Below, one piece after another: positions 3,510 to 63,177 of a DNA stretch of 64,000 nt. This DNA comes from a virus. Positions within the stretch are counted from its first letter, which is position 1. The number at the start of each line of letters is the position of its first letter. Position numbers and translations under genes: made by a program. The stretch is taken from the IMG/VR virus record IMGVR_UViG_3300045988_064633, positions 16,129-80,128 of that record; one strand, written 5' to 3'. Under the pieces are notes generated by a model. It did no database searches. It worked only from the letters and a program-made list of their open reading frames with translations, and had not been told where the DNA came from.

Positions 3510-3581
3510 TCGGAAAGGCAGGAATCGAACCTGCGACACATAGCTTACAAGGCCATTGCTCTGCCACTGAGCTACATTCCA
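3510..3581 (-). tRNA. tRNA-Thr (anticodon UGU)
   Basis: Manual cloverleaf, 72 nt. Acceptor TGGAATG/CTTTCCG has one U-U mismatch. D stem GCTC/GAGC, anticodon loop CTTGTAA, T arm GCAGG-TTCGATT-CCTGC. Confidence 0.75.
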
Positions 3582-3699
3582 TCATGCTTTTCGGTCCAGA
3601 CACCAGACAACAGGATAAGCAATAACCTTTTCTCATGAGATAAATTCAGCCGAATCATAGACCGCCTGTATACAGACAGCATAATTCCGACCAAATTAA

Positions 3700-3771
3700 T
3701 TGCAGGAGACGGATTTGAACCGCCGTTCTCAAGGATATGAACCTTGCGAGATTCCGCTTCTCTATCCTGCC
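3700..3771 (-). tRNA. tRNA with CAU anticodon (Met or lysidine-Ile2)
   Basis: 72-nt cloverleaf. Acceptor GGCAGGA/TCCTGCA has a G1-A72 mismatch. D stem GAGA/TCTC, anticodon arm CAAGG-TTCATAT-CCTTG, T arm GGCGG-TTCAAAT-CCGTC. Confidence 0.75.
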
Positions 3772-3871
3772 TTGTGTGGATTTTCAGCGTATTTGTACCG
3801 GCAATCCACAAGCCGACTGTTTCTTACATCTCGGACAGCTTCCTCATATCCAATATTTACAGATTGGATAA

Positions 3872-3942
3872 TGGGAGAATGCGGAGTTGAACCGCCATGG
3901 TACTGTTAATCAGCCCTCTGCCCCTTATGGTATTATTCCCCC
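3872..3942 (-). tRNA. Degenerate tRNA-like element (anticodon position would read UUA)
   Basis: Good acceptor GGGGGAA/TTCTCCC and T arm GCGG-TTCAACT-CCGC. The D arm is weak and the anticodon stem is mismatched. Loop is GATTAAC with A at position 33. Confidence 0.35.
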
Positions 3943-4301
3943 AGAACCCGGAGATTGTTCCGGGTTAGCAATGATTTTTTCGTGTTATGCTTTCCACTAG
4001 GCAATTTTTCATAACTTGGACTATCGTATTTTTGCCAACCTGACGGCTTTTTGGTAACCGTGGTATGCTCCACGGAGTTGTTTCGGATATTATTATGCCT
4101 TTTGACTTTATGCTTCTTGAAAACTCCCTGCCATCAACGTGCACTTATGATGACTTATTGAAACTAAGAAACATTTATCGGACGGGAAATCAGATCAAGC
4201 ACAAGCCTATGCCGTTACATACCTTTGCTCATTCTGATTCACACACGCTCATCCGAAAGTTTTTTCTGCCCATAAAACGGATGGGTAGCATACGGAAGAA
4301 A

Positions 4302-4374
4302 TGGAAATTCTGAGATTCGAACTCAGGGCTTCCCGGTTATGAGCCGGGCGTTCTAACCGCTGAACTAAATTTCC
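4302..4374 (-). tRNA. tRNA with CAU anticodon (Met or lysidine-Ile2)
   Basis: Canonical 73-nt cloverleaf: GGAAATT/AATTTCC, D GTTC-AGCGGTTA-GAAC, anticodon arm CCCGG-CTCATAA-CCGGG, T arm CTGAG-TTCGAAT-CTCAG. Confidence 0.85.
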
Positions 4375-4608
4375 TGAGTAGAAGCAGTCTCCCGGATTGC
4401 AGATTTTGAGTTGATTTGCTTCTACTGTTGCGGTTCTTTGCCACCAGCCGCAACAAAGGTCATGGCTAAATAGAGTACCTCGTTTTTACGAGGATTCCCA
4501 TCCGGGACATTTGAATCCCCTTTAATCAGCTCCGTTGAGCTAGATGGGTTTTCGTCGGAGGGTCTATGTAAAATAAACCATTGCCAGGTACATGCGCAGC
4601 CCGGCAAA

Positions 4609-4680
4609 CTGGGCTAGCGGGATTCGAACCCGCACATGACGGAATCAAAGTCCGTTACCTTACCTTTTGGCGATAGCCCT
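4609..4680 (-). tRNA. tRNA-Gln (anticodon UUG)
   Basis: 72 nt with Gln-type 3-bp D stem GCC/GGT. Anticodon arm ACGGA-CTTTGAT-TCCGT, T arm GCGGG-TTCGAAT-CCCGC, unpaired 1-72 as in bacterial tRNA-Gln. Confidence 0.8.
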
Positions 4681-5131
4681 AGAATCTTTCTCCCACTCCG
4701 CACCATTACAAAAGCAGGAGAAAGAATTGAGTGTGTGATAATATTTTTATTATGTGCTCTACAATTGCAACACAACTTATGTGGAGAATTCAGCATTTAA
4801 ATAACTAAGTTGTTCTCTTTTTTGTAGAGTCATATTTGCTAAATCGGATGTCTCGATCGTTTGCTTGCATACCGCTCCACTACCGGACAAGCGTATCCTT
4901 TCGGTTTAATTATAGGTTTAACCCGTTCTATGATAAAAAACGGAATAATCCTCATAGGAATTGCAATCAGCATGTATTTACCTCGCAGTGCAAATCAAAA
5001 CTGTATTAAGTATCATTCCTGCTTCCATCAGCAAGAAGAATGCTGTGGAAAATTGATTGCCTTTGTAATTCCGGCTCATTAAAAATGCAGCTGAATATTA
5101 ATTGCTACTGCGATAATGGTTAATGGTAATC

Positions 5132-13631: not shown

Positions 13632-14996
13632 CTAAAATTTTTTTAACTGTATTTCAATATTTCCATTGACTATAATTATTTTTGATATTATAGTTTTTAA
13701 TATACGGTTTTTGTTTTGCTTGTCAATGTGTTCCCACACATCGGCAAGCTTTTTTATATTATCGTATACAAATTCTTTCTTCTGTGAGTTATCCGGGCTC
13801 TTCATCTCGTTCTGTATTTTTAGTTTTAATTCATCTATACCGGATTCCGTTTCTTTTATCATCTCCAGAACCGTATCATTTCCCTCAGCATAAAGAGTAT
13901 ACAGACGTTTTAGCTTCGTTTTCTCTTTTTGGAGTTGTTTACTCAAAATGTCTAGACAGCTTTCTCTTTCTTTTGGCTTATGCGATGATAAATTGAGGGA
14001 AATCTTTAAAATCTCATCTTCAACCTGCTTTTCAATATCTTCTGCCCACTCAAGTGAATTGCTGCAATTCGGATTGTAATTTGGTAAGTACGACATTCCA
14101 TTATCTCTTGAATAGCAATAAATTTTATGCTTCCCATGAGTCCACTTCTGATATCTCATCTTGCATCCGCACACTCCGCAATAGCACAGCCCCGTCAAGA
14201 GCTGATTCTCGTGATTAACGCAGAAGCTTTTACTTTGCTTACGAGTTTTTCTTAATTCCTGGGCTAATTCGAATACTTTAATATCGAAAATTGGTTCATG
14301 TCTTCCCTTATATAGTTTCCCTTTATACGGAATCATGCCAATATTTACAGGACTGGTAAGAACCTGTCGTGTAACAAACTCGCTTTTAAATCCTATCAAT
14401 TTCTGTATTCGAACATCAGAATAACCGGATATATACAAATTCATAGCTCGCAAAGCCATTTCTTTGCGTTCTGGTATGGGAACTAAGATTCCGTCTTCTT
14501 TGCTATATCTATAGCAATAAGGGGTGTTGCCACCTCCCATCCAATATCCCTGTTTCACTCGCTCCAGCATACCGCCACGCATTCTAAGCAGCATAGTATT
14601 TTTGTCAAGTTGCGCAAACACTGCCATCATCTGAGTGTATGCTTGCTCCATTGGGCTGTCGTAGCTTACACTATCATGAACGCATCTAAAATCCACCCCA
14701 TTAGGTATGAATACACGTTCAATTAAGTATATTCCATCGACCATGCTTCTTGATAATCGATCTAGTTTAAACGCTACAACACATTTTAATTTTTTCTTTG
14801 AGCAATCATTAATTAAGCGTTGCAATGCTGGACGATTCATATTCGAACCTGTGAAGCCGTCATCCTCGTACCAATCAGATATAATCAATTGATTTTTTCT
14901 ACAATAATTTTCAATATCTCTTTTCTGACTGTCTAATCCATTTCCCTCTTCGGCCTGTTTTTCTGTCGACACACGTAAATACGCAACACATTCCAT
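13632..14996 (-). CDS. Large serine recombinase (phage integrase type)
   Basis: AYLRVSTEKQ catalytic Ser motif, DRLSRS, recombinase domain, Cys-rich zinc ribbon and C-terminal coiled coil; start after AAAGGAGGAA. Confidence 0.9.
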   Translation of the reverse strand: MECVAYLRVSTEKQAEEGNGLDSQKRDIENYCRKNQLIISDWYEDDGFTGSNMNRPALQRLINDCSKKKLKCVVAFKLDRLSRSMVDGIYLIERVFIPNGVDFRCVHDSVSYDSPMEQAYTQMMAVFAQLDKNTMLLRMRGGMLERVKQGYWMGGGNTPYCYRYSKEDGILVPIPERKEMALRAMNLYISGYSDVRIQKLIGFKSEFVTRQVLTSPVNIGMIPYKGKLYKGRHEPIFDIKVFELAQELRKTRKQSKSFCVNHENQLLTGLCYCGVCGCKMRYQKWTHGKHKIYCYSRDNGMSYLPNYNPNCSNSLEWAEDIEKQVEDEILKISLNLSSHKPKERESCLDILSKQLQKEKTKLKRLYTLYAEGNDTVLEMIKETESGIDELKLKIQNEMKSPDNSQKKEFVYDNIKKLADVWEHIDKQNKNRILKTIISKIIIVNGNIEIQLKKF

Positions 14997-15072
14997 GACT
15001 ATTCCTCCTTTGTGTAGAAATGTGCCGCACATATCATGTTACGACACATTTTACACTACAATATTTTTGCGG

Positions 15073-15804: not shown

Positions 15805-16645
15805 TTTCACCGCCTTGAATCTTTTTGATAAGTTCCTGTTTCATTGCATCCGCTATGTGTTCCCTGACTGATTCTTCAGGAAAGGGGATTTCCAATGATC
15901 GCTCTAAAATTCTGTTTGTAATGCGGTCATCATATTTCAATCGGGAAATAGGATAATTACTGGTGAAAATTGTGGTTTTCTTGTCCACATACCGACCATT
16001 GATGATTCCGTAGAATTTTTCATTAATCCAATCTTTCCCAGATTCCGCACCAAAATCGTCAATAATCAAAATATCCGCGTAAGTCAAATCACTAATCAGC
16101 TTATTCTCTGCGTTTTTCCCTCGTTCTCCCCATGTTGACTTTATCTCATCAAGAATTTTTAGGGATGTTGTGAATTTTACCGATTTCTGATGCTTTTCTA
16201 TCATCTCATTTGCCATGCTACATACAAGCCTTGTCTTTCCAGAGCCTTTAGTATTTGAATATATGTACAGCCCAATTCCCTGTTCCTGCATCTGTTGGAT
16301 ATTTTCGATCCAATATTTAACAGCTTTTGCCGCCTGTATGAATATTTCCTTACTTTCTGGAAGTTGATACACGCTGCTTTTCATATTTGAAAATCTGCAT
16401 TCCTTGTACATATCCGGCATTTCAGCAAATTGCAGCTGGTTCTGTAAGATCATCTTCTTTCTGATTCCGCAATGGCATTCTTCACAATATGGAACGCCAT
16501 TATCATCCCTTGACCATATCCAACCAGAACCGCCACAATCAGGACAATCAGTCTGCAAATGGAGTGTCTGAGATTTCGCTTCCTCCGCATTGATCGAATG
16601 GGATAAGCGGTTTGACATGCGCTTGAGCTGTTCTACCGGTTCCAT
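15788..16645 (-). CDS. DnaC/IstB-like AAA+ helicase loader with N-terminal zinc finger
   Basis: CPDCGGSGW...CEECHC, Walker A SNTKGSGKTR, Walker B ILIIDDFG. Confidence 0.75.
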   Translation of the reverse strand: MEPVEQLKRMSNRLSHSINAEEAKSQTLHLQTDCPDCGGSGWIWSRDDNGVPYCEECHCGIRKKMILQNQLQFAEMPDMYKECRFSNMKSSVYQLPESKEIFIQAAKAVKYWIENIQQMQEQGIGLYIYSNTKGSGKTRLVCSMANEMIEKHQKSVKFTTSLKILDEIKSTWGERGKNAENKLISDLTYADILIIDDFGAESGKDWINEKFYGIINGRYVDKKTTIFTSNYPISRLKYDDRITNRILERSLEIPFPEESVREHIADAMKQELIKKIQGGENGKQA

Positions 16646-30813: not shown

Positions 30814-31160
30814 ACTTCATCATCCTCCGGGAATCTAAACACAATGTTTGCCGGTTCGAATTTCATATCTGGGCTGTTAACCATTATTTTGATGATTCCA
30901 AAACCTCTTGCAGCCATTTTTATGCATTCCTCGTAATCGTCATCGCTCATTTCAACGTTTTGCGCAAGAAACATTCCTGCATACACTTTATGCAACGCTT
31001 TCATAGCTTTTTTGGCTTTTTCTTTTGTCAAATAACGAGCCATAACTGTTCCCTTTTCACCTACCATCGGCACGTATGCTCTTATGATATTTCCGGTTCT
31101 ACTTAATGAAGTGATTTCATAAGGAACGTCAATTTCTCCATTCTGACTAATTAATCTCAT
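30810..31160 (-). CDS. Hypothetical protein, paralog of 22694..22927
   Basis: See the 22694 entry; 4-nt overlap with the RT stop. Confidence 0.5.
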   Translation of the reverse strand: MRLISQNGEIDVPYEITSLSRTGNIIRAYVPMVGEKGTVMARYLTKEKAKKAMKALHKVYAGMFLAQNVEMSDDDYEECIKMAARGFGIIKIMVNSPDMKFEPANIVFRFPEDDEV

Positions 31161-32176
31161 TTTATCCTCCTTTTAATTTCCGAATCCATACTATGGCATA
31201 ATTTGATACAATTTCCATGAAGCATATGATTTTGGCATGCTCCGTATTTTTCATGGAATTTTTCTATCGACATCTTCCCGTCATTCACTACCCGTACCCA
31301 TCTTCGGATTTTTCTCTGTGTTTTTCTTTTCTTATCACCACGCAATTTTCTGATATATTTTCCTTCATCAGTCACGTAATGGTGAAAGCCCAGATAACAC
31401 AATCCCATGCGAAATGGTACAATTTGTGATTTAGGGTTTAGCTCCAATCCAAGGCTTTCAATCATCATTCGGATTGCTTCAAGAATTTCTCTGGCATCTT
31501 CTTTCGTTTTACAAATCACATAAAAATCATCGTTGTATCGTCCGTAATATGGATTTCCAAATTCAATCGTTATCATCTGATCCAGTGAATGTAAAAGCAA
31601 CAATGCGTACTTTTGATTTACCTGATTTCCTAATGGAAGCCCGGGATTACCTGTACTGTCAATAAACAAATGGTTCAACCAGACTGTAAAATCATCATCA
31701 AAGTAATAATCCAAAACATCTTTCATGATTTCATGGTCTATGCAATAAAAGTATTTGTGAATATCACATTTTACAATCCAACTATTCATTCCATTTCTTT
31801 TATAGAAATCCAACATTTGATTTCTTAACCCGTCCATTGCCATGTGTTGTCCTTTTCCTTGCTGTCCGGCAGTGTTCCATTTAATCAGGATATTTTCAAG
31901 TTTCGGTGTCAGAATGTAATCAGAAAAGCATCTCTGCACTACTTTGTCCTTAAATGCACATGATTCTATCGTGCGCTCTTTTGGCTCATGAATTTGAAAT
32001 TTATTATACGGATTTATGGTATACGTTTGGCTTTCCAATTGTTCCTTCAAGAGATGAATGCCTTCAAGAGACAAATTAGAAAATCTTGCAGTACCTGAAT
32101 TAAATTTCTTACCGCTCTTAACCTTCTTGTAAGAACGATATAAATTTTCAAAATTTGTAACAATTTCTTTTTCCAT
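31157..32176 (-). CDS. Diversity-generating retroelement (DGR) reverse transcriptase
   Basis: RT motifs CDIHKYFYCIDH, LPLGNQVNQ (DGR-type GNxxxQ block), YNDD; immediately downstream of a TR with A-specific mismatches to two VRs. Confidence 0.9.
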   Translation of the reverse strand: MEKEIVTNFENLYRSYKKVKSGKKFNSGTARFSNLSLEGIHLLKEQLESQTYTINPYNKFQIHEPKERTIESCAFKDKVVQRCFSDYILTPKLENILIKWNTAGQQGKGQHMAMDGLRNQMLDFYKRNGMNSWIVKCDIHKYFYCIDHEIMKDVLDYYFDDDFTVWLNHLFIDSTGNPGLPLGNQVNQKYALLLLHSLDQMITIEFGNPYYGRYNDDFYVICKTKEDAREILEAIRMMIESLGLELNPKSQIVPFRMGLCYLGFHHYVTDEGKYIRKLRGDKKRKTQRKIRRWVRVVNDGKMSIEKFHEKYGACQNHMLHGNCIKLCHSMDSEIKRRIK

Positions 32177-32269
32177 TTATTTTGTTCCTTTGTATTTATC
32201 CGTTGCGGAAAGGTTATGCATTTGCTTGTATCTTTACTGATTTCAGCTTTACGCTTACTCTGTCTGCCT

Positions 32270-32347
32270 GTGATGCAGGTTGGGCGAACACCATTTTCGT
32301 TGTTGTAATTGTTGTTGTTGATATTGCCCGAAGGGGAAACAATAGTA
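32270..32347 (-). repeat. DGR template repeat (TR)
   Basis: The 67-bp core 32281-32347 matches 32791-32857 and 33393-33459. In frame it encodes SPSGNINNNNYNNENGVRP (AAC-rich). Confidence 0.85.
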
Positions 32348-32371
32348 TTCGCAGTGCATAACCTGTGAAAA

Positions 32372-32746
32372 TTATCTTTTCCTGTCTTTTGTTCTCCATG
32401 AAATAGTCATATACTTTATATCTTTTACCATTTGCGACCATGCTTCCATTCCACCGGAATTGATAATTCCTAATTCATATGAAAGTTCTATAAAGTACAT
32501 CAACTCATCACAATGAGTAATGGCTTTTGTTTGAAGTTCTAATCGTTCTCTTTTATAATCTTTCAGATCAGTTCGGTTGGCTTCAAATAGTGACTCATAA
32601 ATTTCCAATGCTTTATTTTGCATTTTATCTACAAGTGAAAACCTGTATTTCTTCGGGTATCGTCTGGCATTACTCGTAACTATTAATGTATGCTTTGCAA
32701 GTTGCTTGGATTTTGCTATTACCTTTAAATCTTCATTCGCCATCAA
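32372..32746 (-). CDS. avd: DGR accessory variability determinant (Avd, four-helix-bundle protein)
   Basis: 124-aa basic helical protein in the canonical target-avd-TR-RT order; resembles four-helix-bundle / 23S-IVS family proteins. Confidence 0.8.
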   Translation of the reverse strand: MMANEDLKVIAKSKQLAKHTLIVTSNARRYPKKYRFSLVDKMQNKALEIYESLFEANRTDLKDYKRERLELQTKAITHCDELMYFIELSYELGIINSGGMEAWSQMVKDIKYMTISWRTKDRKR

Positions 32747-33348
32747 TCATCATTTCCTGATTCAAAGATTGAAGAAGAAAAGATGCAAACTGGGCGAACA
32801 CCATTTCCGCCGCCGTAATTGCGGCTGCCGAAATTGCCCGAAGGGGAAACAATAGTAATTGTTGTACTGTAATCATTTGCTGGTGTACTCCATGGAGTAA
32901 GCAGCCACCACCATTTATCCATATTTGGAAGGATTTTTCTGTATTTTCGGTATTCATCCACCGTCAAAATCGAAATCTTATCTTTACAATGTGCATATTC
33001 TGTCTGACCGTCCATAGAAAGTAAATCTCGATCAAACTCAATAACTGCATCTTCTCCAAGCTCGTCCGTAATTTTTTTAAGAAAACGAGTGTTTAACTCA
33101 TTTCTCAGTTTACTTGAAATCCAGTTATTTGAAGCTGAATCAAATGTTCTTTCTTTTCCATCAAATCCATTCAAAATGGCAAAATATCCTTTTTCTGTCT
33201 TATCCAGAATCAGCCATTCCATACCAGCAAGTTCAATAGCTTTTCCGATTTCCGGCTTTCCGATGTGCTTTTTCTTGAATTCTGCGAACTCTTTACTTAA
33301 TCTGGATAATTCATCCTCAAAATATTTCAGATTTTTCTTCATAATCAT
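32743..33348 (-). CDS. DGR variable target protein 1 (C-type-lectin-like VR tail)
   Basis: C-terminus WWWLLTPWS...IVSPSGNFGSRNYGGGNGVRPVC carries VR1 48 nt before the stop. Confidence 0.85.
   Translation of the reverse strand: MIMKKNLKYFEDELSRLSKEFAEFKKKHIGKPEIGKAIELAGMEWLILDKTEKGYFAILNGFDGKERTFDSASNNWISSKLRNELNTRFLKKITDELGEDAVIEFDRDLLSMDGQTEYAHCKDKISILTVDEYRKYRKILPNMDKWWWLLTPWSTPANDYSTTITIVSPSGNFGSRNYGGGNGVRPVCIFSSSIFESGNDD
32791..32857 (-). repeat. DGR variable repeat VR1
   Basis: 11 differences from TR, all at TR plus-strand T (coding-strand A). Confidence 0.85.
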
Positions 33349-33950
33349 TCCTCCACCTTAGATACAAAGATATTAGATTTTAAGATACAAACTGGGCGAA
33401 CACCACTTCCGACGTCGTAAAGGTCGCCGCAGATACTGCCCGAAGGGGAAACAATAGCAATACTTTTTTTCCATCCACGTTCTTCCGTTGACCATGGCGA
33501 TAATGTCCAATACCAGTCGTTCAGATCATTGTTCGGTGTAATATCTGTGTATTCTCGTGCTTCATCAAATGTAATTGGACGGATTTTACAATCAACAGTC
33601 CCCAATTTCTGTCCATCCGCAGTGATAATATCTGCTGTGTGTGTTTCGACATTTTCTGCCCCGAATTCTTCTTCGAAGTCTTTCAGAATTTCAGTGTCAC
33701 ACAGTTTCTTTACGTTTGATGTTTTGTAATCTGAGGTATCACCAAACTCTACATTTTCTTTCACCAGATCAAGCGAAATAATTTTTGTTGTATCTCCATA
33801 CTGTTCCAGAACCTTGTATTTACGCTTTCCAGTGGTCTGAAATACTTCTCCTCGTTTCAGCGTTGACAACTCAACCTTTCCGGTTTCTTCCTGCTTTTCC
33901 AGAAGTTCAACCAGTTCCTTTGCTTTCTGTAAAATTTCTTTATTGTTCAT
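33345..33950 (-). CDS. DGR variable target protein 2 (paralog of target 1)
   Basis: C-terminus WYWTLSPWS...IVSPSGSICGDLYDVGSGVRPVC carries VR2 48 nt before the stop; start after GGAGGC. Confidence 0.85.
   Translation of the reverse strand: MNNKEILQKAKELVELLEKQEETGKVELSTLKRGEVFQTTGKRKYKVLEQYGDTTKIISLDLVKENVEFGDTSDYKTSNVKKLCDTEILKDFEEEFGAENVETHTADIITADGQKLGTVDCKIRPITFDEAREYTDITPNNDLNDWYWTLSPWSTEERGWKKSIAIVSPSGSICGDLYDVGSGVRPVCILKSNIFVSKVEE
33393..33459 (-). repeat. DGR variable repeat VR2
   Basis: 14 differences from TR, all at TR plus-strand T (coding-strand A). Confidence 0.85.
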
Positions 33951-34341
33951 TCCCGTTGCCTCCAAAAAATATTTCTCGCATATCTACTGCTGCGTACTTC
34001 TTATGCATAAGTTTCTTGTTTTTGATTGCCCCGTTCGGATTGTTGCAGACAAAATCTCTGCATATCTCAGGTCTCACTGGATAAATGAGACATTTTTCTT
34101 TTTCTTTGGAATCATCCAGGAACGGGCAAGTAAGGTCAAAAGCTACAACCGAAGGATAATTATGTTTCTGCTCAGTGATATGATGCTTCTTTACGTAACG
34201 TTTGATTTCTTTAATTTCTTTACTGGATATTGGCAAGTAGTTGCTACAACATTGTCCGCAACCACTGCATTTACCGTCCTTTGTGAATTCAAATACTCCA
34301 CATTTCATATCCTTCATGACTTCTTCTAACGTCCCGATCAT
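33940..34341 (-). CDS. YkgJ-family Cys-cluster (zinc/iron-chelating) protein
   Basis: CSGCGQCC ... CPFL ... C ... VRPEICRDFVC pattern. Confidence 0.65.
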   Translation of the reverse strand: MIGTLEEVMKDMKCGVFEFTKDGKCSGCGQCCSNYLPISSKEIKEIKRYVKKHHITEQKHNYPSVVAFDLTCPFLDDSKEKEKCLIYPVRPEICRDFVCNNPNGAIKNKKLMHKKYAAVDMREIFFGGNGNEQ

Positions 34342-34345
34342 GCTA

Positions 34346-34507
34346 TCACCTCGTAAGTTGAACAAGAATGTTCATAACAAGTGATACTGCCGAGGCTATG
34401 AACAATGGTCGGGTCTTATCCTTTGCGACCGCATAAATTATTGCGCCTAACAATGGTAAGAATGAGATATAAAGCAATGACTCAAACACTGAATGAATTA
34501 TTGACAT
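34346..34507 (-). CDS. 53-aa two-helix membrane peptide
   Basis: MSIIHSVFESLLYISFLPLLGAIIYAVAKDKTRPLFIASAVSLVMNILVQLTR; untracked ORF filling the gap. Confidence 0.35.
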   Translation of the reverse strand: MSIIHSVFESLLYISFLPLLGAIIYAVAKDKTRPLFIASAVSLVMNILVQLTR

Positions 34508-35611: not shown

Positions 35612-36053
35612 TTTAATTCTCCTTTTCTTTTATTAATTAACTCATTTTTTGTTTGCATTTCTGTTCAGTTCTGCACTTCGCCAAAGCAAATCATAACCGA
35701 GCTACGCTCTGCCTATCCTTTGCTCATCTTCTCTACTCAGCACCATTGCTATACTTTACTTTTCTATTCCGTGCTTCGCCTATACGTATCTTTGCCCTGC
35801 CCTACTTCGCCAATGCGTTACATTTCTTTACAACACATTGCTCTGCTGCGCTTTTCCGCTACCTCACTATGCGAAACCTCTCTTTACTTTGCCAAAACGT
35901 ATCAACTCTTTTCAATTCCATAACTTTGCCCTTCTGCACCTCTCAGTACCACTCCGATACATTACTTTGCTACGCTTCGCCGAAGCAAATCATTACCCAG
36001 CAATTCTGCGCCTTTGCTTTGCCTATCATAACTACATTCAGCCATGCCGTAGC
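35612..36053. repeat. ORF-free block of degenerate same-orientation CTTYGCC repeats (block A)
   Basis: CTTCGCC at 35676, 35774, 35805, 35975; CTTTGCC at 35790, 35887, 35924, 36017. The 26-nt copies 35676-35701 and 35975-36000 match 23/26. The plus strand is pyrimidine-rich. Confidence 0.5.
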
Positions 36054-36650
36054 TTATTTTGTGATTTCAGTCCATTTGAAACGGCCTTTGCCTGAGTTTC
36101 GCCACTGACCAATGTCGTTAAACTCTCCATAATCAAGCCAGTCAATTACATATTTCATGAGTGAATCATCAAGTACTTTGATTGTGAATTCTACTGTTGA
36201 CCCTGCTGGTACTGTTTCACTGTCTGCCAAAGAGATTCTTTCGCCCTGTGCTGTCTGCGCTCTCAGTGGTCTCTGACAATCAGAAAGTTCTGTACCTTCT
36301 GGAAGAACAAACGGAATTTTGCGTTCGTTTACAAATACCAGTAAGTCAATTTTTTTCTTATAAGCTGCAAGTTTCTTTGCTCCACCGATATAGGAACTGG
36401 CCTGTGCAGCTGACTTAAAGAATCCTCTGATCTGGTAGTCCCAAAGGAACGGATTGCCGTTATCATCTTTCGGAAATACTGTTCGACCTTTTTCGACAAC
36501 TTCTTCAATTCCTAAAGCTTCAACTTCCTGTTCTCTGGAAGGTGCATCTGGTGCTTTTGATGCAATGAATTTCTCGTGAATATCTTTTTCTGCATTTGCG
36601 GTTCCCAGAACTTCCTCTAAAAATGTTAATCTGACTTTTAATTCTTTCAT
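36054..36650 (-). CDS. Conserved-looking hypothetical protein (198 aa)
   Basis: Good RBS GGAGGAATACGAG; motifs PFLWDYQIRGFFKSA and GQWRNSGKGRFKW; family not recognised. Confidence 0.6.
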   Translation of the reverse strand: MKELKVRLTFLEEVLGTANAEKDIHEKFIASKAPDAPSREQEVEALGIEEVVEKGRTVFPKDDNGNPFLWDYQIRGFFKSAAQASSYIGGAKKLAAYKKKIDLLVFVNERKIPFVLPEGTELSDCQRPLRAQTAQGERISLADSETVPAGSTVEFTIKVLDDSLMKYVIDWLDYGEFNDIGQWRNSGKGRFKWTEITK

Positions 36651-36952
36651 CTCGTATTCCTCCGATTTTTATATTTTGCTTAATGCTTTGCTTGTCACAG
36701 CCGTGCGTTTCCGTTGCTGTTCTTTGCCTCTCAGAGCCGTGCCGTTGCATCTCAAATCAGTGCTTAGCTATGCCTTTGCTTTACTCGGCTATTCTATTCT
36801 CAACGTTTCCATTGCATTTCATTTCTTCACGCTGCAGTTCAGTGCCTGTCTATTCCGTGGCATTTCATATCTGTTCTATGCATATCCCTTGCTTCGCTTC
36901 TCATTGCTTCGCTTTGCCGTTGCAAAGCTAACTATGCTAATCCTATTGCGTT
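36651..36952. repeat. ORF-free block of related degenerate repeats (block B)
   Basis: CTTTGCC at 36722 and 36912; GCTTCGCTTC at 36891. Repeated ttccattgcatttcat / ttccgtggcatttcat and agccgtgc..ccgttgc units. Shares vocabulary with block A. Confidence 0.5.
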
Positions 36953-41795: not shown

Positions 41796-42043
41796 TCACT
41801 TTCGATTTCATTGAACATTGTTTCCAGGTGGTATTCATCTTTCAAATCGCTGTTTGCATAATCGATGGATTTCACTTGGAAACAGATGTTTGCACCGCTT
41901 TGAGTGTTGAACACTTTCACATATTTCTTTCCATTTCTCGCAAAGCACATTACCCGCGTGTTATCCGGAATTCTTACAATCTGCGGTGCGAATAATCTTT
42001 TTAAAAATTGCTTTAGCACATTTATGGCTCCTTTCTCAATCAC
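41768..42043 (-). CDS. Hypothetical protein
   Basis: 91-aa ORF. Confidence 0.45.
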   Translation of the reverse strand: MIEKGAINVLKQFLKRLFAPQIVRIPDNTRVMCFARNGKKYVKVFNTQSGANICFQVKSIDYANSDLKDEYHLETMFNEIESDQSVTILNQ

Positions 42044-42797
42044 CGTCTGCTTTTTCAGTTTCCTGTCCCAGAAACTTATTCACGAAATACAACTGTCCCT
42101 TTCCGCTAACTTTTGTCGTGCGTGTGATTCTTACTGAACCATCTGGATTCTGAACGTTAGATTCTTTGATTTCAAATAATCCCTGCTCAACGTATTTCTG
42201 TTTTGGCATATTTCGTGAACTTCCAGAAACCATCAGATAGCCATTGTCTCTCATCCACTGGAACAATCGTTTCTGTCCTATCTGGTATCCGTTCTGACAG
42301 ATAAGTTTTGCCAAGTCACCGATAAGAATTGATGTATGACTTGCGGATACAGCATCTGCGAAAATTGTTTTCGGTCTATCAGCTTCAATTTTCTCCGCAA
42401 GAGACTTATTTGTATCTTTCAACTTCGCAATCGTCTGGTCTGCCATCTTCAATGCTCTGGCAAAAACCTGTTCTGGTGTGTTCCATGCTTTTTCGAGGTC
42501 GATGAGATACTGTCGGCATTCTTTTCCTTTTTCAGTTCTACTCATAAGGCAAATGTGTTTTGCCATATCTACTGATAATGAATAGTCTTGTATTTCCTGT
42601 TCGCCGCCGTGTTGGTTGCCCTGTACCTTTAGGTACGCCCCTCTGTAATCCTCATTTTCAATAAATCCCTGAGAGTTTGTCTCAAACCATGCTGAAAATC
42701 TCTTACTGATTTCAAGAGATTTATGTAGTTCTCTAGCTGACACTGTCGGTTGCTCGCCATCATAATTGATTGTCATTAACTGTTCCGTGGTTATCAC
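42036..42797 (-). CDS. Phage antirepressor (AntA/ANT N-terminal plus KilAC C-terminal domain)
   Basis: VSARELHKSLEISKRFSAWFETN... and C-terminal TSILIGDLAKLICQNGYQIGQKRLFQWMRDNGYL. Confidence 0.8.
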   Translation of the reverse strand: MITTEQLMTINYDGEQPTVSARELHKSLEISKRFSAWFETNSQGFIENEDYRGAYLKVQGNQHGGEQEIQDYSLSVDMAKHICLMSRTEKGKECRQYLIDLEKAWNTPEQVFARALKMADQTIAKLKDTNKSLAEKIEADRPKTIFADAVSASHTSILIGDLAKLICQNGYQIGQKRLFQWMRDNGYLMVSGSSRNMPKQKYVEQGLFEIKESNVQNPDGSVRITRTTKVSGKGQLYFVNKFLGQETEKADGD

Positions 42798-56874: not shown

Positions 56875-57942
56875 TCATTCCTCCCGTTTCTGTTTCACGC
56901 GGTTATACAAAATGTTCTGTGTCTTCTCCGTGAAGAACAGCCAGATATGATAATCGCAGTCCATATTGTTGTTCTTCCCAATGTTGGAACTGAAATATTC
57001 GTCCATCATGTCCAGATAATATTGCGGCTCCTCGTCCTCTTCGACTATTCCGTCTTTCACCATATCCAAGTCAGCATTTCGAATCATACTCAGAAACTGG
57101 TCAAGATCATTGGCATAAACCATCGGGTGTCGTTCTCCCCGATACTGTTTGAATTTTTCAAAGAACTGTTTGACCAATGCCATAGTTAGACAGATGTCAT
57201 GGTCTTTCAAAATATCTTCTTTGTCCCCGTACAGAGAATTAAATCCATTGTACAGGATTGTCGGTAGTTCTTCGTCTTTGTAATCGACAGAGCGATTATT
57301 TTTCGCATGTGCGTACCGTTCCTGCTTCTGCTCTTTCGTTCTAGGTGGTATATTATTAATATTTATATTTATATTATTATTAGGAGCAGAAGTCTTTACT
57401 CCTTTACCAGACGATGGTAAAGTCTTTTCCTCTGTACTTGATAAAGTACAGTCTTTATCTGTATTCTCTGTATAGTGTTCTCTGTAAGTAGTCTCTGGTA
57501 ATGCTTCTGTCGAATTGTCGGTGTGCATTTCGTCATTTTGTCTATTTGCACACGGACAATCTGACGTTGAAATTTCAACAGTATCTTTTAAGACTTTTTC
57601 AAGAACATCTTCGTCAATAGAATACCATTTAGTTCTGTCCCTACTATCCTTGTTATAATTGCCTGTAATAACAAGACCGGAATTTACCAAATTTTTAAAT
57701 GCTCTTTCAACAGTTTTTGTTGACCACCATGGAAAATTTTCTTTTCTCCAATTTTCCATGGTATTGTAGCTCCAATACTTTCCGTCGTGATAATTTCTTT
57801 TTAACTTTTCATTAATTTCAAGCCAATAATAAATTTGTCTTAAAACAACAGCTTCATTAAGTCCTATTCTTACTGCAAGTTCGGAATTTATAACAAGATT
57901 ACTTTGAGTAGATAAAATAAGATCTGATAATTTTTTATTCAT
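56875..57942 (-). CDS. Winged-helix protein resembling replication-initiator/DnaD-like N-terminal domains (cassette gene 1)
   Basis: LAVRIGLNEAVVLRQIYYWL...YWSYNTMENWRKENFPWWSTKTVERAFKNLVNSGLVI; Asn/Ile low-complexity linker; start after GGAGGT. Confidence 0.55.
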   Translation of the reverse strand: MNKKLSDLILSTQSNLVINSELAVRIGLNEAVVLRQIYYWLEINEKLKRNYHDGKYWSYNTMENWRKENFPWWSTKTVERAFKNLVNSGLVITGNYNKDSRDRTKWYSIDEDVLEKVLKDTVEISTSDCPCANRQNDEMHTDNSTEALPETTYREHYTENTDKDCTLSSTEEKTLPSSGKGVKTSAPNNNINININNIPPRTKEQKQERYAHAKNNRSVDYKDEELPTILYNGFNSLYGDKEDILKDHDICLTMALVKQFFEKFKQYRGERHPMVYANDLDQFLSMIRNADLDMVKDGIVEEDEEPQYYLDMMDEYFSSNIGKNNNMDCDYHIWLFFTEKTQNILYNRVKQKREE

Positions 57943-58167
57943 AGTAGATAACCTCCATGTCGTTAATGTGTGACTGCCTTGTAGCCACAGATCCATGATT
58001 TATAAAAACAACAGGCAGGTGCATCATGGAATTGCACTTGTCCCCCGTCGGGTTAGCCTGTTGGTTTTACCAAACAAAAAAAGAGCACACAAAAGAATCG
58101 TGAGGCTTTTCCCTCGTTTCATCTTTAGTGTGCTCTCTTCAACAAATGTAATAACTATTTCTCGTTT

Positions 58168-58196
58168 AGTATATCAAATTCTACCGCAAAAATCAA
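58168..58196 (-). promoter_or_regulatory. Candidate promoter TTGATT-17-TATACT for the cassette
   Basis: Minus strand TTGATT (58196-58191), 17 nt, TATACT (58173-58168); overlaps the tape-measure stop codon. Confidence 0.4.
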
Positions 58197-61100
58197 TATG
58201 CCGGGGACGGATTCATGCGGTAATCTGTGTTGTTCTGAGCCTTTGTGACAATTCGCGCCAGTTCACGCTCGTTCACTTTGATGCTGTTCATGATGTACTC
58301 TGGTGAAGAACCGCCAAAACCACCATTGTTCATCAAAGCAGTGACTACGCCACGCTCGACAGCTTCCATGATCTCATCTTTCGTAAGTCCCATGTTGCCG
58401 TCATAGCCGGACATGATGCTGTCGGCAATGGATTTCATGGCTTTTCGATTTTCCAAAGGAAGAACAGCTTCCTGTCCTGCTTCGCCTACACCAATGACAG
58501 ATGCATTTTTGAACAAACCACCTTTTGCATACCAGTTCGGACTATAGACAGGGGTTGAACTGGTACCGCCGTTCCCAAGGCTATGTGTTTTCCACTGAGA
58601 AATATAATACGAAAGCGTAGGCATTCTCACGGATTTCATTCCATTTCTTAATGATTGAGCCGCATTATGGCCAATGCTGTACATATCACTGAATGCGCTG
58701 CGAATAGTTCTCATAAAGCTATTTAAAGAGCTATCCATACTCTTTGACATACTTCCAGAAACATAAGAAGAGATATCTCTTCCGATATTCTCCCATTTCT
58801 TATAAGCAATGTTGTACTGACTTTGGAAATGGCTTGTTACAGATTTGTCCATATTTCCAAGTTCTGTACTTACGGCATTTTTCATCTCCCTTGCCTTTAA
58901 TGTCGCTTCTCTGGAAGAATTTCCCCATGAGCTAGTAGTTGTAGTTTCCATGCCTTTCATGTAAGTATCAGCCTGTTTCTGGATTTCCGAGAAATCATCT
59001 GTGGCATTTTTTGCCATTTGATTTGTGGCTGTTTGAGTGTCTCTTGATGCCTGTCCAACTGATGTTGATATAGTCTGCTGTGCTCCAACAATATTCTTGT
59101 CTACTGCTGATTTTGTGGCTAACGTAGCGTTCGGGAAGTCTTTTGCAAGTTTGTTGTTCAGTTCATCGAGTGGAACTCCTGCATTCTTCAATGAAGTGTA
59201 GACTGTATCTAATGCATCTTTGGTATTTGTGATAGTTCCACCATTATTAGCATTATCAAGTTCGTCCATGGCTGTTTTGTATGAACCACCAAAATCGTCA
59301 GATTTCAGACTCAATAAGTATAGCTCGTCTTTCAAATCCGAAATACTGATTTTTGATGTATCGAATTTACCAGCTGCTTCTGACACGCCATCTCCAAGTG
59401 CGGAGATTTGATTAGTCATACCCTCAACAAATTCAGCCGATACACCGGCCTGTGCGCCATACTGCTCAAGAGCTGTTCTAGCCTGATCGGATGAAACGCC
59501 ATACTCTTTCAATTTTTCAACCATATCAGAGTACATTTCATCGTGAGTTTTTCCAAGTTCTTCATCCTTCTCAATAAGCTGCCACAACGCTTCCGATTGA
59601 TCGTTTGTAAGATTTGCTACATCAGTCAGCTGTGTTGCGTAATCATGGAGATAACCACCATACTGTGTAGTCATTCCATTACCACCTTGCATGGTCTCAA
59701 AAAGTCCTGCTAATTTCTTGGTAAGTAATACTGCACCATCTACTGCAAGAGCAATTCCACCACCAGTTGCAACAAGTGAGCCTAACGATGTCCCAAGAGC
59801 CGGAATAGTTGTTGAGACTGCTTCTGTGATTGCGGGACTCAGCATACCTCGTACAGCTTTAGAAAGATTTCCAAATACAGTATCACCTGTAAAAAACTTA
59901 GTAATTGTATCAACTAATGGCATGAGCTTATTACCAATAGCAAAAACAGCCATTGCCTGAACAAATGTGCCGGCAGATGTTGTTCCAAGTCCTTCCCAGA
60001 TTCCACCAAGAACGTCTCCGATAACCGTAAGTAACTGTGCAAGATGTTTTCCCCAGTCAATTTCACTGAGGAATACGCCTACATTGTGTCCAAACGCTTC
60101 CCAATCGACACCCCTTGCAATCTCAATAAGAGATGTGAGCAATTTGTTGATAAATTCTTCTAACTTTTGACCGTTTTTTCGCCAGTTGAATTCTTGCATG
60201 AATGTGGTGATTCCATTTGTAATGTTATCAACAAGATTTTCCCAATTAAAGCTTGCTGTAAATGAAGCCAATGTATCAAAAGCACCATTCAATCCAGTTG
60301 CAAGTGTATAAGCAATTTCACCGAAATTAATCTTTTCAAAGATTCCGTTCAAGCCTTCTGCGACAGCTGTTCCAATTTCTCCGTACTGGAGATTTTCTAC
60401 GAAGCCTGAGAAAATATCCCATCCACGCATAAAGGAATTTCCAAGCAGATTGCCGAAGTTTTCCCAATTCACTTCACGAACAAGGCCAGTGATACCATTG
60501 GCAAATTTAGAACCAAGGTTCTTCCAGTCGATTCCTTCCAGAAGTTGGTTTGCAGTATTTACAATAGTATTCATACCAGCTCCAACGGTACGTCCCATCA
60601 AATCCCAGTTGATATTATCAACAAGGCTGTTGAAAGTCTGGGTGAACGCACTGGTGAATTTAGTGATGTACGGGCCTACGTTATTCCAGTTAATGAAATC
60701 ATAAAGCTTTTGCATTCCCCAGTTGATGCCATCAGCCATGATTTTTCCAAGGCCTTTCCAGTCTTTTCTCTTAAAGGCATTTACAATGGCATCTGCCATT
60801 TCATTTGCCCTGTTGGACATTTTCTTGAATGCTTCGTCCCATGCTTTTTGATATGCAGATAAAGCATCGTTCAAAGCTGCATCAAGTGCTTTGATATGCC
60901 CCAAACCGCCTTTTCCAGAGCCAGAAGATGGATTACTTGTACTACCAGAATCAGAATTGTCATTAAGCTGATTCAGTTCATCAAATGAAAGAACTGACAA
61001 TGTTTTTTTGAGCTTTTTGGCATTCTTATTTGCAGTATCAATAGAATCACTAGCATTATCCATATCATCCGCAATGTTACTTGTATCTACAGAAATACCG

Positions 61101-61298
61101 CCAGTAGATGATACAAAGTTAGACAGTTTGATTCCAAGAAGTTTTGCAATATAAGCGAACATTCTTTGTATTGCGATTACTATTGCATTGATATATGGAA
61201 GTACTGTTTGCAGTATAGGAATGAATAAGGAACCTATTGTTCTACCAAGGGATGCAAAGTTAGATTGAAGCATACGAATCTGATTTGCCGGTTGATTT
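58193..61298 (-). CDS. Tail tape-measure protein, 3-prime exon/segment
   Basis: Begins in the conserved NQPANQIRMLQSNFASLGRTIGSLFIP core (TP901-type TMP); Gly/Ala-rich helical repeats follow. Confidence 0.85.
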
Positions 61299-61621
61299 CG
61301 ATTTGTTATCGTAAGGCTTTTTATCCTCACTTCTGCATTATTACAATGCATGTCCAGCGTACCTTTTTACCACAGGCTCTGCACCTGTACCGTCCGATAG
61401 TGATGCCTCTTGGGAAGATTATATTCTGTAGTATCTCAACTACAGTTTCACTTCCTACGCGTTGCGGTTGACTATGCTTTTAATCATAGCCTTCACTCTC
61501 TGATTACCGTTGCAAACGGCTTTCCAGCTTATTTCATCACTAATAACTCATATCCTACTTGACGGTTTCGATATGAGCGACTTGCCAGTAGCTACGCATT
61601 TATCACGCTACTGACCTATTT
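61299..61621 (-). ncRNA. Candidate ORF-less self-splicing (group I-like) intron interrupting the tape-measure gene
   Basis: 323 nt. Removing it joins ...WADLSET-AT|A-NQPANQIRML in frame, with U before the 5-prime junction and G as the last insert base. Dense hairpins and long-range complementarities. Confidence 0.5.
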
Positions 61622-63177
61622 ATCGTTTCTGACAAATCAGCCCATGCATACTTAGAGTTGTTCAGCAAGATAATCGTTCTCAAAATCGTTTTATCTGCCT
61701 GAGACAACTTCGATATGCTGGTATTAATCCCAAGATTATACAGTTCCTGTTGCATGTTGGCATTACGGATATTAATGCCGTACTTATCCATAGCGCGGCT
61801 CATACCAGTCAAGCCAGATGCCATGTCCTGCCATACATCCTCGAAGTCCATATTTCTTACAGAAGCAAGATCTGCACCAATCATAGTAAGTGCATTAGAC
61901 AATTTTAAGGCAGTCTCTGATGTATCGCCCATAGATGATGCCATCTGTGCAAATGTTGCCTGATACTGCATTGTTTTTTCTGGGTCAAGTCCAAGACTAG
62001 CGGTATTGGTTCTAGCCAGTTCACCAGTATCTGAAATTTCGAATCCTGTCAGTTTCTGTGAAAGCTGTTTTGCCCTTTCCTGGAATGAATTTGCATATGC
62101 TTCAACGGATTTTATGCCACTTTTTTTCCATTCGTCAGTGTTGATTCCTTCTGCCACCTGATTGAACGCAGAATTGAAATAGTTCAGAGTCTCTACATAG
62201 TTCATTGCGGATTCTACTGGCGATGTCAGAACATCTAATGCTCTTTTTACGAGGAAACCTTTGGCGTAAAAAGCACTCAACTTATCAGTTACTGAACTCA
62301 TAGGGTTTGACAATCTTCTTATTTTTTCACCAGTTTCAGAAGATGCATTTCCAATACCTGCGATTGCAGATACAGCTTTTCCGCCTAAAGAAATAGCTTT
62401 TGAAGCAAATTTTTGAAAAGCATTTGTCAGCCCATTGATTACAGTACTTGCTTTTGAACCTAACGAAGAAAGCGTGTTAAATGAATTCGAAACGCTACTT
62501 GTGGCACGCCCTACTTTGCTTCCAGACGATGCTAATACTGCAAGAGCTTCTGTCATTCTTATTGTGCTCGAACTGATATCTGGTGCACTTTTCATTACGT
62601 CAAAAAACTTCAAAACCTCTTGTGCGAGAGTTGATAATTGACTTGCAGTCTTTCCAGTTTTATCTCCTGCACTAGCTAATTTTCCAAGAGAAGTAATAAA
62701 AGCATTGGTGGATGCTGATACTTCGCTCATAGAGCCTAATTTAGTAGCCGCATTATTTAAACCTGTCGCAAGATTCGGAAGTTCCTTTGATACATTGCCG
62801 ATATACTGTCCTGTGCCGGCAAGTTTAGCTATAGCGGTTGTGAACCGGCTAACGCTCGGAGAAACATCTGGAATAGCATCAAGTTTCTGCATCTCGGTAA
62901 GAATTTTACCTAATTTCCCTGTATCAAACTGACTGAAATCGGATTTTCCAAGACGATTGATAGCGTTTATAGCCGCATTCAATCCATTTGCTTTAAAATT
63001 CACGCTGCCTAAACTTTTTAAAGAATTGGAAAAATTATTTAACCGGCTTATGTCAAGATTTCCAATGGCAGTGTTTAATGTATCTAATTTTTTTACAAGG
63101 TTATTAATAGACCGCACCGCCTGAGTTGTGCTACTCTCTATTTGTATATTGAGGGTATCTATGGTATTATCGGCCAT
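61622..63177 (-). CDS. Tail tape-measure protein, 5-prime exon/segment
   Basis: Helical repeat-rich 518 codons ending ...YAWADLSETI; the track ORF runs 5 codons into the insert before a stop. Confidence 0.85.

Follow-up and report, generated by a model that had tools for sequence, protein, structure and literature searches.

A diversity-generating retroelement with two tandem DUF6273 target genes in the recombination and replication block of a temperate gut phage

We analyzed a 64,000-nucleotide stretch of viral DNA (positions 16,129 to 80,128 of IMG/VR record IMGVR_UViG_3300045988_064633; hereafter the window), which carries all of the parts of a diversity-generating retroelement (DGR). The cassette lies on the minus strand in the order target gene 2, target gene 1, avd, template repeat (TR), spacer and reverse transcriptase (RT) gene, with a variable repeat (VR) at the 3′ end of each target gene (Table 1). 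The gene order and the span (31157-33965) that the first-pass annotation, a reading of this DNA from its letters alone, had given for the element were both correct. Our refinement concerned gene starts, where the ATG codons listed in Table 1 are the likely ones for target gene 2, target gene 1 and avd. The sequence GGAGG is found 9 nt upstream of the ATG favored for target gene 2, the ribosome-binding site of target gene 1 is inside the end of target gene 2, and the stop codon of target gene 1 overlaps the start of avd (TGATG). Since the genes overlap, their translation is probably coupled, and the arrangement points to one co-directional, translationally coupled operon. A promoter and terminator scan returned no more sites than were found in shuffled sequences and was left unused.

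Table 1. Features of the DGR cassette, in window coordinates. Sequences are given as read on the coding strand.
Feature	Position	Strand	Remarks
Target gene 2	33345..33965	minus	longest ORF 206 aa from TTG; likely ATG at 33950, giving 201 aa
VR2, at 3′ end of target gene 2	33393..33461	minus	14 TR-A mismatches in core
VR2 IMH-like 3′ junction	33384..33404	minus	GGTGTTCGCCCA GTT TGTATC
Target gene 1	32743..33348	minus	ORF 201 aa; likely ATG at 33342, giving 199 aa; close homologues 199 aa
VR1, at 3′ end of target gene 1	32791..32859	minus	11 TR-A mismatches in core
VR1 IMH-like 3′ junction	32782..32802	minus	GGTGTTCGCCCA GTT TGCATC
avd	32372..32746	minus	124 aa; likely start ATG at 32743
Inverted-repeat 5′ arm	32355..32364	minus	AGGTTATGCA; pairs with 32211-32220
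TR, template repeat	32281..32349	minus	reads NTIVSPSGNINNNNYNNENGVRP; nearly invariant in relatives
TR IMH*-like 3′ junction	32272..32292	minus	GGTGTTCGCCCA ACC TGCATC
TR-RT spacer	32177..32271	minus	95 nt; strongly conserved across 73 loci; holds 3′ arm TGCATAACCT
Inverted-repeat 3′ arm	32211-32220	minus	TGCATAACCT; inside spacer
DGR reverse transcriptase	31157..32176	minus	339 aa; LPLGNQVNQ and YNDD

A repeat search of the window identified a direct repeat in three copies, at 32272-32347, 32782-32857 and 33384-33459, which are spaced 510 and 602 nt apart. Exactly three sites in the 64-kb window (32281, 32791 and 33393) carry the 12-mer GGTGTTCGCCCA; the mean number of matches in shuffled sequences was 0.13, and none of 100 shuffles gave three. 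No further repeat copy that could represent a remote third VR was found within the 64-kb window, about 14 kb of the approximately 78-kb phage genome lying beyond it. The TR is situated between the avd stop codon and the RT start codon, outside any long open reading frame (ORF). It contains 25 adenines in 69 nt, is rich in AAC and AAT codons, and gives NTIVSPSGNINNNNYNNENGVRPTCITG when translated in the frame of the VRs. Each VR ends 48 nt ahead of the stop codon of its ORF.

We tabulated the differences between the copies on the coding (minus) strand over the 67-nt core at 32281-32347. Compared with the TR, VR1 had 11 mismatches and VR2 had 14, all 25 of them on TR adenines (18 A>G, 5 A>T and 2 A>C). 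As 23 of the 67 core nucleotides are adenines, we calculate that the chance of all 25 mismatches landing on adenines by random placement is (23/67)^25, or approximately 2e-12. The TR-VR register probably includes two more bases on the 5′ side, up to 32349, because both VRs show A>T at 32348 and agree with the TR at 32349; a G mismatch at 32350 marks the end of the homology. The first-pass annotation had reported three copies at these positions, 11 and 14 differences confined to TR adenines, and an AAC-rich TR with the peptide quoted. The repeat and 12-mer searches and our independent tabulation reproduced each of these statements, no substitution at a non-A position was found in the core, and every number in that annotation proved correct.

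The 339-aa product of the RT gene contains both of the motifs that had been noted previously, LPLGNQVNQ and YNDD. It matched Pfam RVT_1 (E 1.7e-12) and PHROG 1423 (E 2.2e-86). In a sequence search of the PDB, the best solved relative was 8ub7_A (E 1.4e-26, residues 6-299), followed by a group II intron RT (3.3e-13), a retron-type RT (1.3e-11) and Drt3a (1e-4). The database name of 8ub7 is only 'Reverse transcriptase'; from its sequence, we take it to be the RT of the BPP-1 DGR. GNQVNQ and YNDD of the phage protein align to GSLTSQ and YMDD of 8ub7, and tblastn matches of the RT included Bordetella and Faecalibacterium DGR phages. These sequence comparisons support an RT of the DGR type, far closer to 8ub7 than to the RTs of group II introns or retrons. 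The neighboring gene product matched PHROG 3206, 'Avd protein of DGR', over its full length (E 1.7e-23); a PDB sequence search with Avd gave no meaningful match.

These proteins bear on the possibility that the repeats are ordinary paralogous sequence, consisting of two duplicated genes and a fragment, that happens to lie beside an unrelated RT. The two targets are indeed paralogues with 30% identity, and the top NCBIfam match of the RT was a group II intron model. However, the NCBIfam matches of this protein were all below threshold, to group II intron and defence-RT models, the former at 102 bits against a cut-off of 300, and because the library contains no DGR RT model this ranking is uninformative rather than contrary. 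A grouping with group II intron or retron RTs, which the first-pass annotation had named as a result that would count against a DGR, was not what the PDB search gave, as 8ub7 was ahead by 13 orders of magnitude in E-value. Moreover, an avd gene is present, and a search of Rfam over the whole window detected only four tRNAs and an int-alpA RNA, with nothing in the DGR region, including no intron or retron RNA. The exclusive placement of the mismatches on TR adenines is likewise at odds with ordinary paralogy, and the population data below bear on the same point.

Querying with the RT recovered 80 IMG/VR loci with 88-99% protein identity, mostly on contigs of approximately 77-81 kb. The window and the 62 related loci that aligned without gaps provided 126 TR-VR comparisons, and a 39-locus subset was used for the substitution spectrum. 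In the 126 comparisons, 1369 mismatches were on TR adenines and 134 were elsewhere (1369/1503, 91%). In the subset, the non-A mismatches were mostly at the 5′ boundary of the repeat, and approximately 47% of TR-A positions were still A in the VRs, the others being G (513), T (424) or C (57). The first-pass annotation had expected population variability confined to the TR-A positions. The related contigs, which serve as a proxy, show variation concentrated at these positions.

TR alleles that differ between strains made it possible to follow individual columns of the repeat. At column 53, loci in which the TR has G had G in the VR in 42 of 42 cases, whereas a TR with A was accompanied by scrambled VRs (A34, T24, G22, C4). 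Similarly, T in the TR at column 25 was matched by T in 26 of 28 VRs, whereas VRs were scrambled where the TR has A. At six non-A polymorphic columns, VRs matched their own TR in 98-100% of cases. This matching to the cognate TR, together with scrambling only where the TR has A, demonstrates that information flows from TR to VR and that mutagenesis is adenine-specific. Columns 6-7 behaved differently, in that the VRs diverged from the TR (C in 22 of 26 VRs where the TR has T). Since these columns do not follow the TR, the transferred tract usually starts near column 8, giving a length of approximately 61 nt. With a tract of approximately 61-69 nt, the repeat is short for a DGR. VRs that track TR alleles, the adenine bias of the population, the adenine-only mismatches of the window and the match to 8ub7 effectively refute the ordinary-paralogue explanation, to which we assign virtually no probability. 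The claim of the first-pass annotation that the locus is a DGR was thus sustained by the RT, Avd and the A-site mismatches between TR and VRs, and the 3′ junctions described below fit it.

Closely related genomes provided evidence for recent diversification. Four pairs of loci (L030/L032, L028/L029, L022/L023 and L024/L026) showed 0 differences in 2746 positions outside the VRs and 10-28 differences in 138 positions inside them; identical flanks with differing VRs indicate very recent mutagenesis in this lineage. VR1 encoded a distinct peptide in 66 of 69 loci and VR2 in 62 of 66, and the TR encoded 17 distinct peptides in 73 loci. The TR of the window is the commonest allele, with an identical TR in 13 of the 39 loci. 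The theoretical repertoire is approximately 5e13 peptide variants per target, and no stop codon can be reached from AAC or AAT codons. These contig-to-contig comparisons of assemblies argue for ongoing diversification.

Several observations weigh against an element that is intact and working at present. The RT has N in place of the S of BPP-1 in the GxxxSQ block and YNDD in place of YMDD. Although the Avd assignment of the first-pass annotation was borne out by PHROG 3206, the profile search with NCBIfam NF033474 (DivGenRetAVD) gave E 3.8e-10 and 40 bits, under the 80-bit cut-off, and the matches to Pfam PF05635 and bAvd were both under their cut-offs. A hairpin or cruciform downstream of the VR is a feature of BPP-1-type DGRs that is not universal; no such structure was predicted after VR2 (-0.2 kcal/mol, z +1.8), and only a weak one after VR1 (-10.4 kcal/mol, z -1.9). 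A few related contigs have corrupted or chimeric TRs (L016, L056 and L079), and VR2 of L008 is an unmutated copy of the TR. Finally, the case for present activity comes from comparing assembled contigs rather than from reads of a single sample.

The last three of these points would favor a DGR by descent that is now inactive here, in which the VR differences are fossils and gene conversion keeps the repeats similar. The same can be said of phage Lelie, whose small DUF6273 target, related to those described here, was invariant at the time of sequencing (PMC11792537). Other observations are difficult to reconcile with a dead element. All four ORFs (RT, avd and the two targets) are intact, the TR is the commonest allele, and both VRs have 0 non-A mismatches. 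In addition, near-identical genomes differ only in their VRs, and gene conversion would erase adenine-specific differences rather than create them. We therefore regard loss of activity as very improbable, and consider it highly likely that the window contains a complete, currently active DGR of a temperate gut phage. That its targets are diversified by mutagenic retrohoming is, in our assessment, very well supported.

The variant relatives deserve description in their own right. L008 (IMGVR_UViG_3300045988_060245, the same contig as L134) has four repeat copies with spacings of 510, 602 and 510 nt; its VR2 slot is occupied by the unmutated TR followed by a 3′ junction of VR type, and there are two identical copies of VR1. 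This could be either TR/VR recombination with tandem duplication or a short-read assembly chimera near the contig end. The TRs of L056 and L079 are A-depleted and VR-like, that of L056 being one position off its VR1, and the TR of L016 carries the VR-type junction GTTTGTATC. These three cases suggest either occasional VR-to-TR conversion that disables the element or assembly errors; for the anomalous contigs generally, some lineages may have lost function or the assemblies may be wrong. L089 (IMGVR_UViG_3300045988_056330) is more divergent and has at least 3 tandem VR-bearing targets at 617-nt spacing. Two of its VRs are one base apart, each with 14 A-site mismatches to a differing TR (GGCAATATCAACAACAACAACTGTAACAACAACAAC). 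VR-type junctions numbered 1-2 per stretch at approximately 600-nt spacing in the relatives and 3-4 in L089 and L134/L008. The copy count of L089 indicates that members of this phage group differ in how many tandem targets they have.

The 3′ junctions of the three copies in the window differ in the manner expected of a pair of initiation of mutagenic homing (IMH) sites. Related TRs carry AAC(C/A)TG(C/G/T)ATC and related VRs carry GTTTG(C/T)ATC, so that the distinction is kept in the relatives, and the pattern is consistent with an IMH*/IMH pair. The first-pass annotation had proposed such a pair and had the homology stop at this point. The TR/VR difference and the fit to IMH*/IMH stand, but the homology does not end completely, as six shared bases follow the three that differ.

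In the transcript, the TR is flanked by the arms of a perfect 10-bp inverted repeat, the 3′ arm lying within the spacer; the minimum-free-energy fold (z -2.4) pairs these arms with each other. The core GGTTATGC and almost the whole spacer are kept in two subgroups of relatives in which the sequence just upstream of the repeat has diverged. Covariation spoke neither for nor against the TR-flanking helix because it is invariant in all of the relatives. By analogy with BPP-1, the spacer is presumed to be the RNA element for binding of RT-Avd and for priming.

From these features, and from what is known of BPP-1, we infer the following mechanism. Transcription would proceed from avd through the TR into the spacer, and an RT-Avd complex would bind the TR and spacer RNA, where the conserved 10-bp helix brackets the TR. 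Priming from the spacer would yield cDNA with random bases at the positions templated by TR adenines. This cDNA would then replace the last approximately 61-69 nt of the VR in either target, with integration directed by the IMH-like sequence GGTGTTCGCCCA-GTTTG(C/T)ATC. We propose that the TR itself is not overwritten because it has ACC in place of GTT at the junction. Each round would re-randomize approximately 15 codons, mostly AAC and AAT and hence without stops, in what is predicted to be a strand-turn-strand at the C-terminal end of the DUF6273 domain. The RT-Avd-RNA complex, spacer priming and IMH-guided integration are the steps for which BPP-1 serves as the guide.

The two target proteins are approximately 200 aa long. 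In each, a helix at the N terminus precedes a DUF6273 domain, and the VR occupies the C-terminal end of that domain. Target 1 matched Pfam DUF6273 above the cut-off (E 1.2e-7) and PHROG 9958 (E 1.4e-46); the corresponding values for target 2 were E 9e-4, below the cut-off, and E 1.6e-24. The family is large: clustering at 50% identity gives 1292 representatives (E <=0.001), and at 90% identity there are over 3000 clusters. Target 1 was modeled with AF2 from 53 diverse homologues; the model had a pLDDT of 95 and a pTM of 0.86 and comprised a helix at residues 2-27 and a globular alpha/beta domain. VR1 encodes residues ~163-185, which span the model strands at 173-177 and 181-183.

When the model was compared with the PDB using Foldseek, the sole significant match was 9qa6, an IgA peptidase of Thomasclavelia ramosa (E 1.2e-5), an enzyme whose N-terminal domain is annotated as DUF6273 (PMC12402451). 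Classical C-type lectins in the PDB gave weak matches, with probabilities of 0.1-0.3. In BFVD, DUF6273 proteins of phages made up most of the best matches (down to 1e-8); next came DUF1566 proteins (2.5e-3), which we take to represent a known lectin-fold target domain of DGRs. The targets have their C-terminal domain in common with PHROG 10993, 'Hoc-like head decoration'. On the basis of the model, the targets appear to be DUF6273 proteins that are distantly C-type-lectin-like. They correspond to the small 'tgt2' type of DGR target, proteins of about 200-290 aa in which a single globular DUF6273 domain flanked by helices carries the VR at its C-terminal end. Neither has the Ig domains of a tentaclin, a target type that combines an N-terminal C-lectin domain with Ig repeats, as judged from the Pfam scan, the model and a size of ~200 aa.

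The source of the window is a temperate tailed phage of the human gut with a genome of approximately 78-80 kb. The window encodes a tape measure protein, tail proteins, an endolysin, an anti-repressor, a DNA methyltransferase and a serine integrase. The large serine integrase gene is at 13632-15032 (PHROG 95, E 7e-97), the anti-repressor gene is at 42036-42797, and four clustered tRNA genes (Thr, Met, Met and Gln) are at 3510-4681 on the minus strand; taken together, they point to a temperate lifestyle. By megablast, the segment 29000-37000 matched no GenBank phage, leaving this phage without a close relative in culture or among deposits, and an RT scan of GTDB representative genomes found no relatives. 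Shine-Dalgarno sites suggest a Firmicutes host, and the only host hint from a database label was a homologue (P0072) listed by NCBI as 'uncultured Ruminococcus sp.'

The DGR is inside a recombination and replication block, and the lysis and tail genes are 12 kb or more away. This location and the DUF6273 identity of the targets had not been noticed in the first-pass annotation. Gene order around the cassette is SbcC-like, a gene of unassigned function, RecT, a CxxCxxCC protein, target 2, target 1, avd, TR and RT; past the RT are two small unassigned ORFs, an MBL-fold hydrolase gene, one small ORF and, recognized by eye, a putative SSB gene. The CxxCxxCC gene at 33940-34365 (PF03692, PHROG 32498) encodes a putative zinc- or iron-binding protein, adjoins target gene 2 upstream and extends into the longest ORF of that gene. 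The 7 closest related loci, which were aligned across this position, all carry it.

Other features of the window are worth recording. A family of 66-nt repeats has three diverged copies (61-74% identity) starting at 35671, 35970 and 36732 (range 35671-36797, plus coordinates), in or near the gaps that flank the gene at 36054-36650, between the RecT and SbcC-like genes. These repeats may be iteron- or origin-like, or an RNA element. A gene for a DnaD-like protein or replication initiator (56875-57996, PHROG 6493/11233) and the int-alpA RNA (57993-58063, 52 bits) are oddly placed between the tape measure gene and a large tail-protein gene, and the segment at 56875-58063 may be an inserted element or moron. 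The tape measure gene itself is apparently split into ORFs at 61603-63177 (524 aa) and 58193-61351 (1052 aa), approximately 250 nt apart, which match consecutive parts of PHROG 28918.

Comparison with the BPP-1 DGR (mtd-avd-TR-brt) revealed extensive likeness. Both elements have the order target, avd, TR and RT, an AAC-rich TR, adenine-specific mutagenesis with about half of the TR-A positions changed, a VR at the C-terminal end of the target, and TR and VR 3′ junctions that differ in the IMH*/IMH fashion. In contrast, BPP-1 has one target, the 381-aa Mtd that is attached to the tail fibre, whereas the window has two tandem targets of approximately 200 aa with an N-terminal helix. The BPP-1 cassette is in the tail module; the one described here is in the early recombination and replication module and has no convincing hairpin after its VRs. 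The RT motifs also differ, as given above. The BPP-1 tract is 134 nt, compared with approximately 61-69 nt here, and its spacer is approximately 140 nt, compared with 95 nt.

Small DUF6273 targets of DGRs have been published previously: 'tgt2' of phages nd4 and nd12 (Baykov et al. 2023, PMC10743442), a second VR gene of Toutatisvirus that is 17.5 kb from the TR (bioRxiv 10.1101/2024.10.15.618418), and the small targets of Lelie and CP11, the variable regions of Lelie being those without variation at sequencing time (PMC11792537). By tblastn, the small targets of nd4, nd12, Toutatis, Lelie and Brigit belong to the same PHROG 9958/DUF6273 family, with 28-33% identity to those of the window. The DGRs of these phages of gut Firmicutes resemble ours in having RTs that are 33-39% identical, two VRs per TR and a VR at the C-terminal end of DUF6273. 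They differ in that avd-TR-RT is followed by a large Ig-repeat target, a tentaclin, and in that the small target is approximately 10-17 kb or more from the RT; in the window, there is no tentaclin and two small paralogues are directly upstream of avd. The DGR cores of Brigit and Toutatis are beside tail and lysis genes, whereas here the whole cassette is in the early module.

The surroundings of the published small targets are comparable to those in the window. Toutatis gp24 has methyltransferase, replication-initiation and antiterminator genes as neighbors, the nd4 homologue has genes of Pol III type and for SSB nearby, and Brigit gp06 follows lysogeny-switch regulators and precedes exonuclease and RecT genes. 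The early genes of Toutatis and Brigit carry VRs, with 13 of 14 and 7 of 9 mismatches, respectively, at A sites when compared with their own TRs. The positions in Toutatis, nd4 and Brigit indicate that an early-module location is recurrent for this small target family. Brigit gp06 (L083 3948-4559, Faecalibacterium phage FP_Brigit) is annotated as hypothetical. A 69-nt match links it to the region upstream of the RT gene (L084 3700-3768), and as that alignment began at the edge of the query the repeat may exceed 69 nt. By its sequence, gp06 looks like a remote second DGR target approximately 41 kb from the TR.

Quimbyvirus (Benler et al. 2021, PMC8008677) offers a further parallel, which we drew from its published description. 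It is a gut phage with a genome of approximately 75 kb and two DGR targets, one of which is outside the structural module and has been proposed to be non-structural (PMC8008677). Its RT is split over three frames and one of its targets is beside tail fibres, whereas the phage described here has a single-ORF RT and neither target in such a position; the reported hosts of Quimbyvirus are mostly Bacteroidetes, compared with the Firmicutes host that we favor here. We conclude that the cassette is a clear new example of a published type of gut-phage DGR and not a new kind of system. What is particular to it is a cassette in BPP-1 order within the early module, two tandem small targets without a tentaclin, and a short tract.

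We take the targets to be ligand-binding proteins with diversified specificity, and their role is the weakest link of our explanation; that they multimerize through the N-terminal helix is a guess. In the published reading of nd4/nd12 'tgt2' and of the Toutatisvirus targets (PMC10743442; bioRxiv 10.1101/2024.10.15.618418), such proteins are virion-borne or released receptor-binding or adhesion proteins that, like Mtd, track ligands of the host surface or mucosa. The lectin-like fold and the domain shared with PHROG 10993 agree with this reading, as does the reported occurrence of a DGR-diversified tentaclin in the Faecalibacterium secretome and vesicles (bioRxiv 10.64898/2026.05.08.723808), although that tentaclin is a Hoc-like protein with a DUF6273 lectin domain and not a small target. 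Gene position is less accommodating: the target genes are in an early block, with RecT and the CxxCxxCC gene on one side and the MBL-fold hydrolase and SSB genes on the other, far from the lysis and tail genes, and the small targets of Toutatis, Brigit and nd4 are also among early genes. Nor was a signal peptide or membrane segment apparent in either target, as judged by eye only. On balance, we lean slightly toward a receptor-binding or adhesion role.

The early-module position, the coupling to avd and the seeming absence of an export signal together leave room for a non-structural role. The targets could be expressed early or from the lysogen and act as intracellular binders of variable factors of the host or of competing phages, in counter-defence or exclusion. 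The same early position in four phage groups (the window, Toutatis gp24, Brigit gp06 and nd4) would fit such a role, particularly as the early-module genes of Toutatis and Brigit are genuine VR carriers and the target genes here are translationally coupled to avd; Quimbyvirus supplies the precedent for a non-structural DGR target (PMC8008677). However, gene position alone is weak evidence, the DGR targets of lectin fold that have been studied so far bind extracellular ligands, and Pfam and PHROG scans found no defence or anti-defence domain in or beside the targets, the PADLOC library not having been searched. An intracellular role is possible but, in our view, unlikely. Broader in form, and in our estimate rather improbable, is the idea that the targets constitute an early-expressed repertoire of hypervariable binders, either intracellular or released at lysis, that would be directed against variable host or rival-phage factors. 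What suggests it is positional: the small target genes are among early genes here and in Toutatis, Brigit and nd4, and in the window the entire DGR appears to have moved there, with a tandem duplication of the target that reaches three copies in some relatives.

As a discovery this element is incremental, since DGRs are common in gut phages and the target family was already published. It adds a fourth independent case of a small DUF6273 DGR target among early genes. The differences in TR allele from strain to strain serve as natural controls, in which a site is scrambled only where the TR has A. The lineage is a good model for short-tract homing and for the use of one TR by two or three tandem targets, as well as for minimal RNA elements, given its 95-nt spacer and the 10-bp helix that brackets the TR. 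Its value lies in an exceptionally clean population signal, a compact architecture, and the testable question of what a diversified target does in the early module of a phage.

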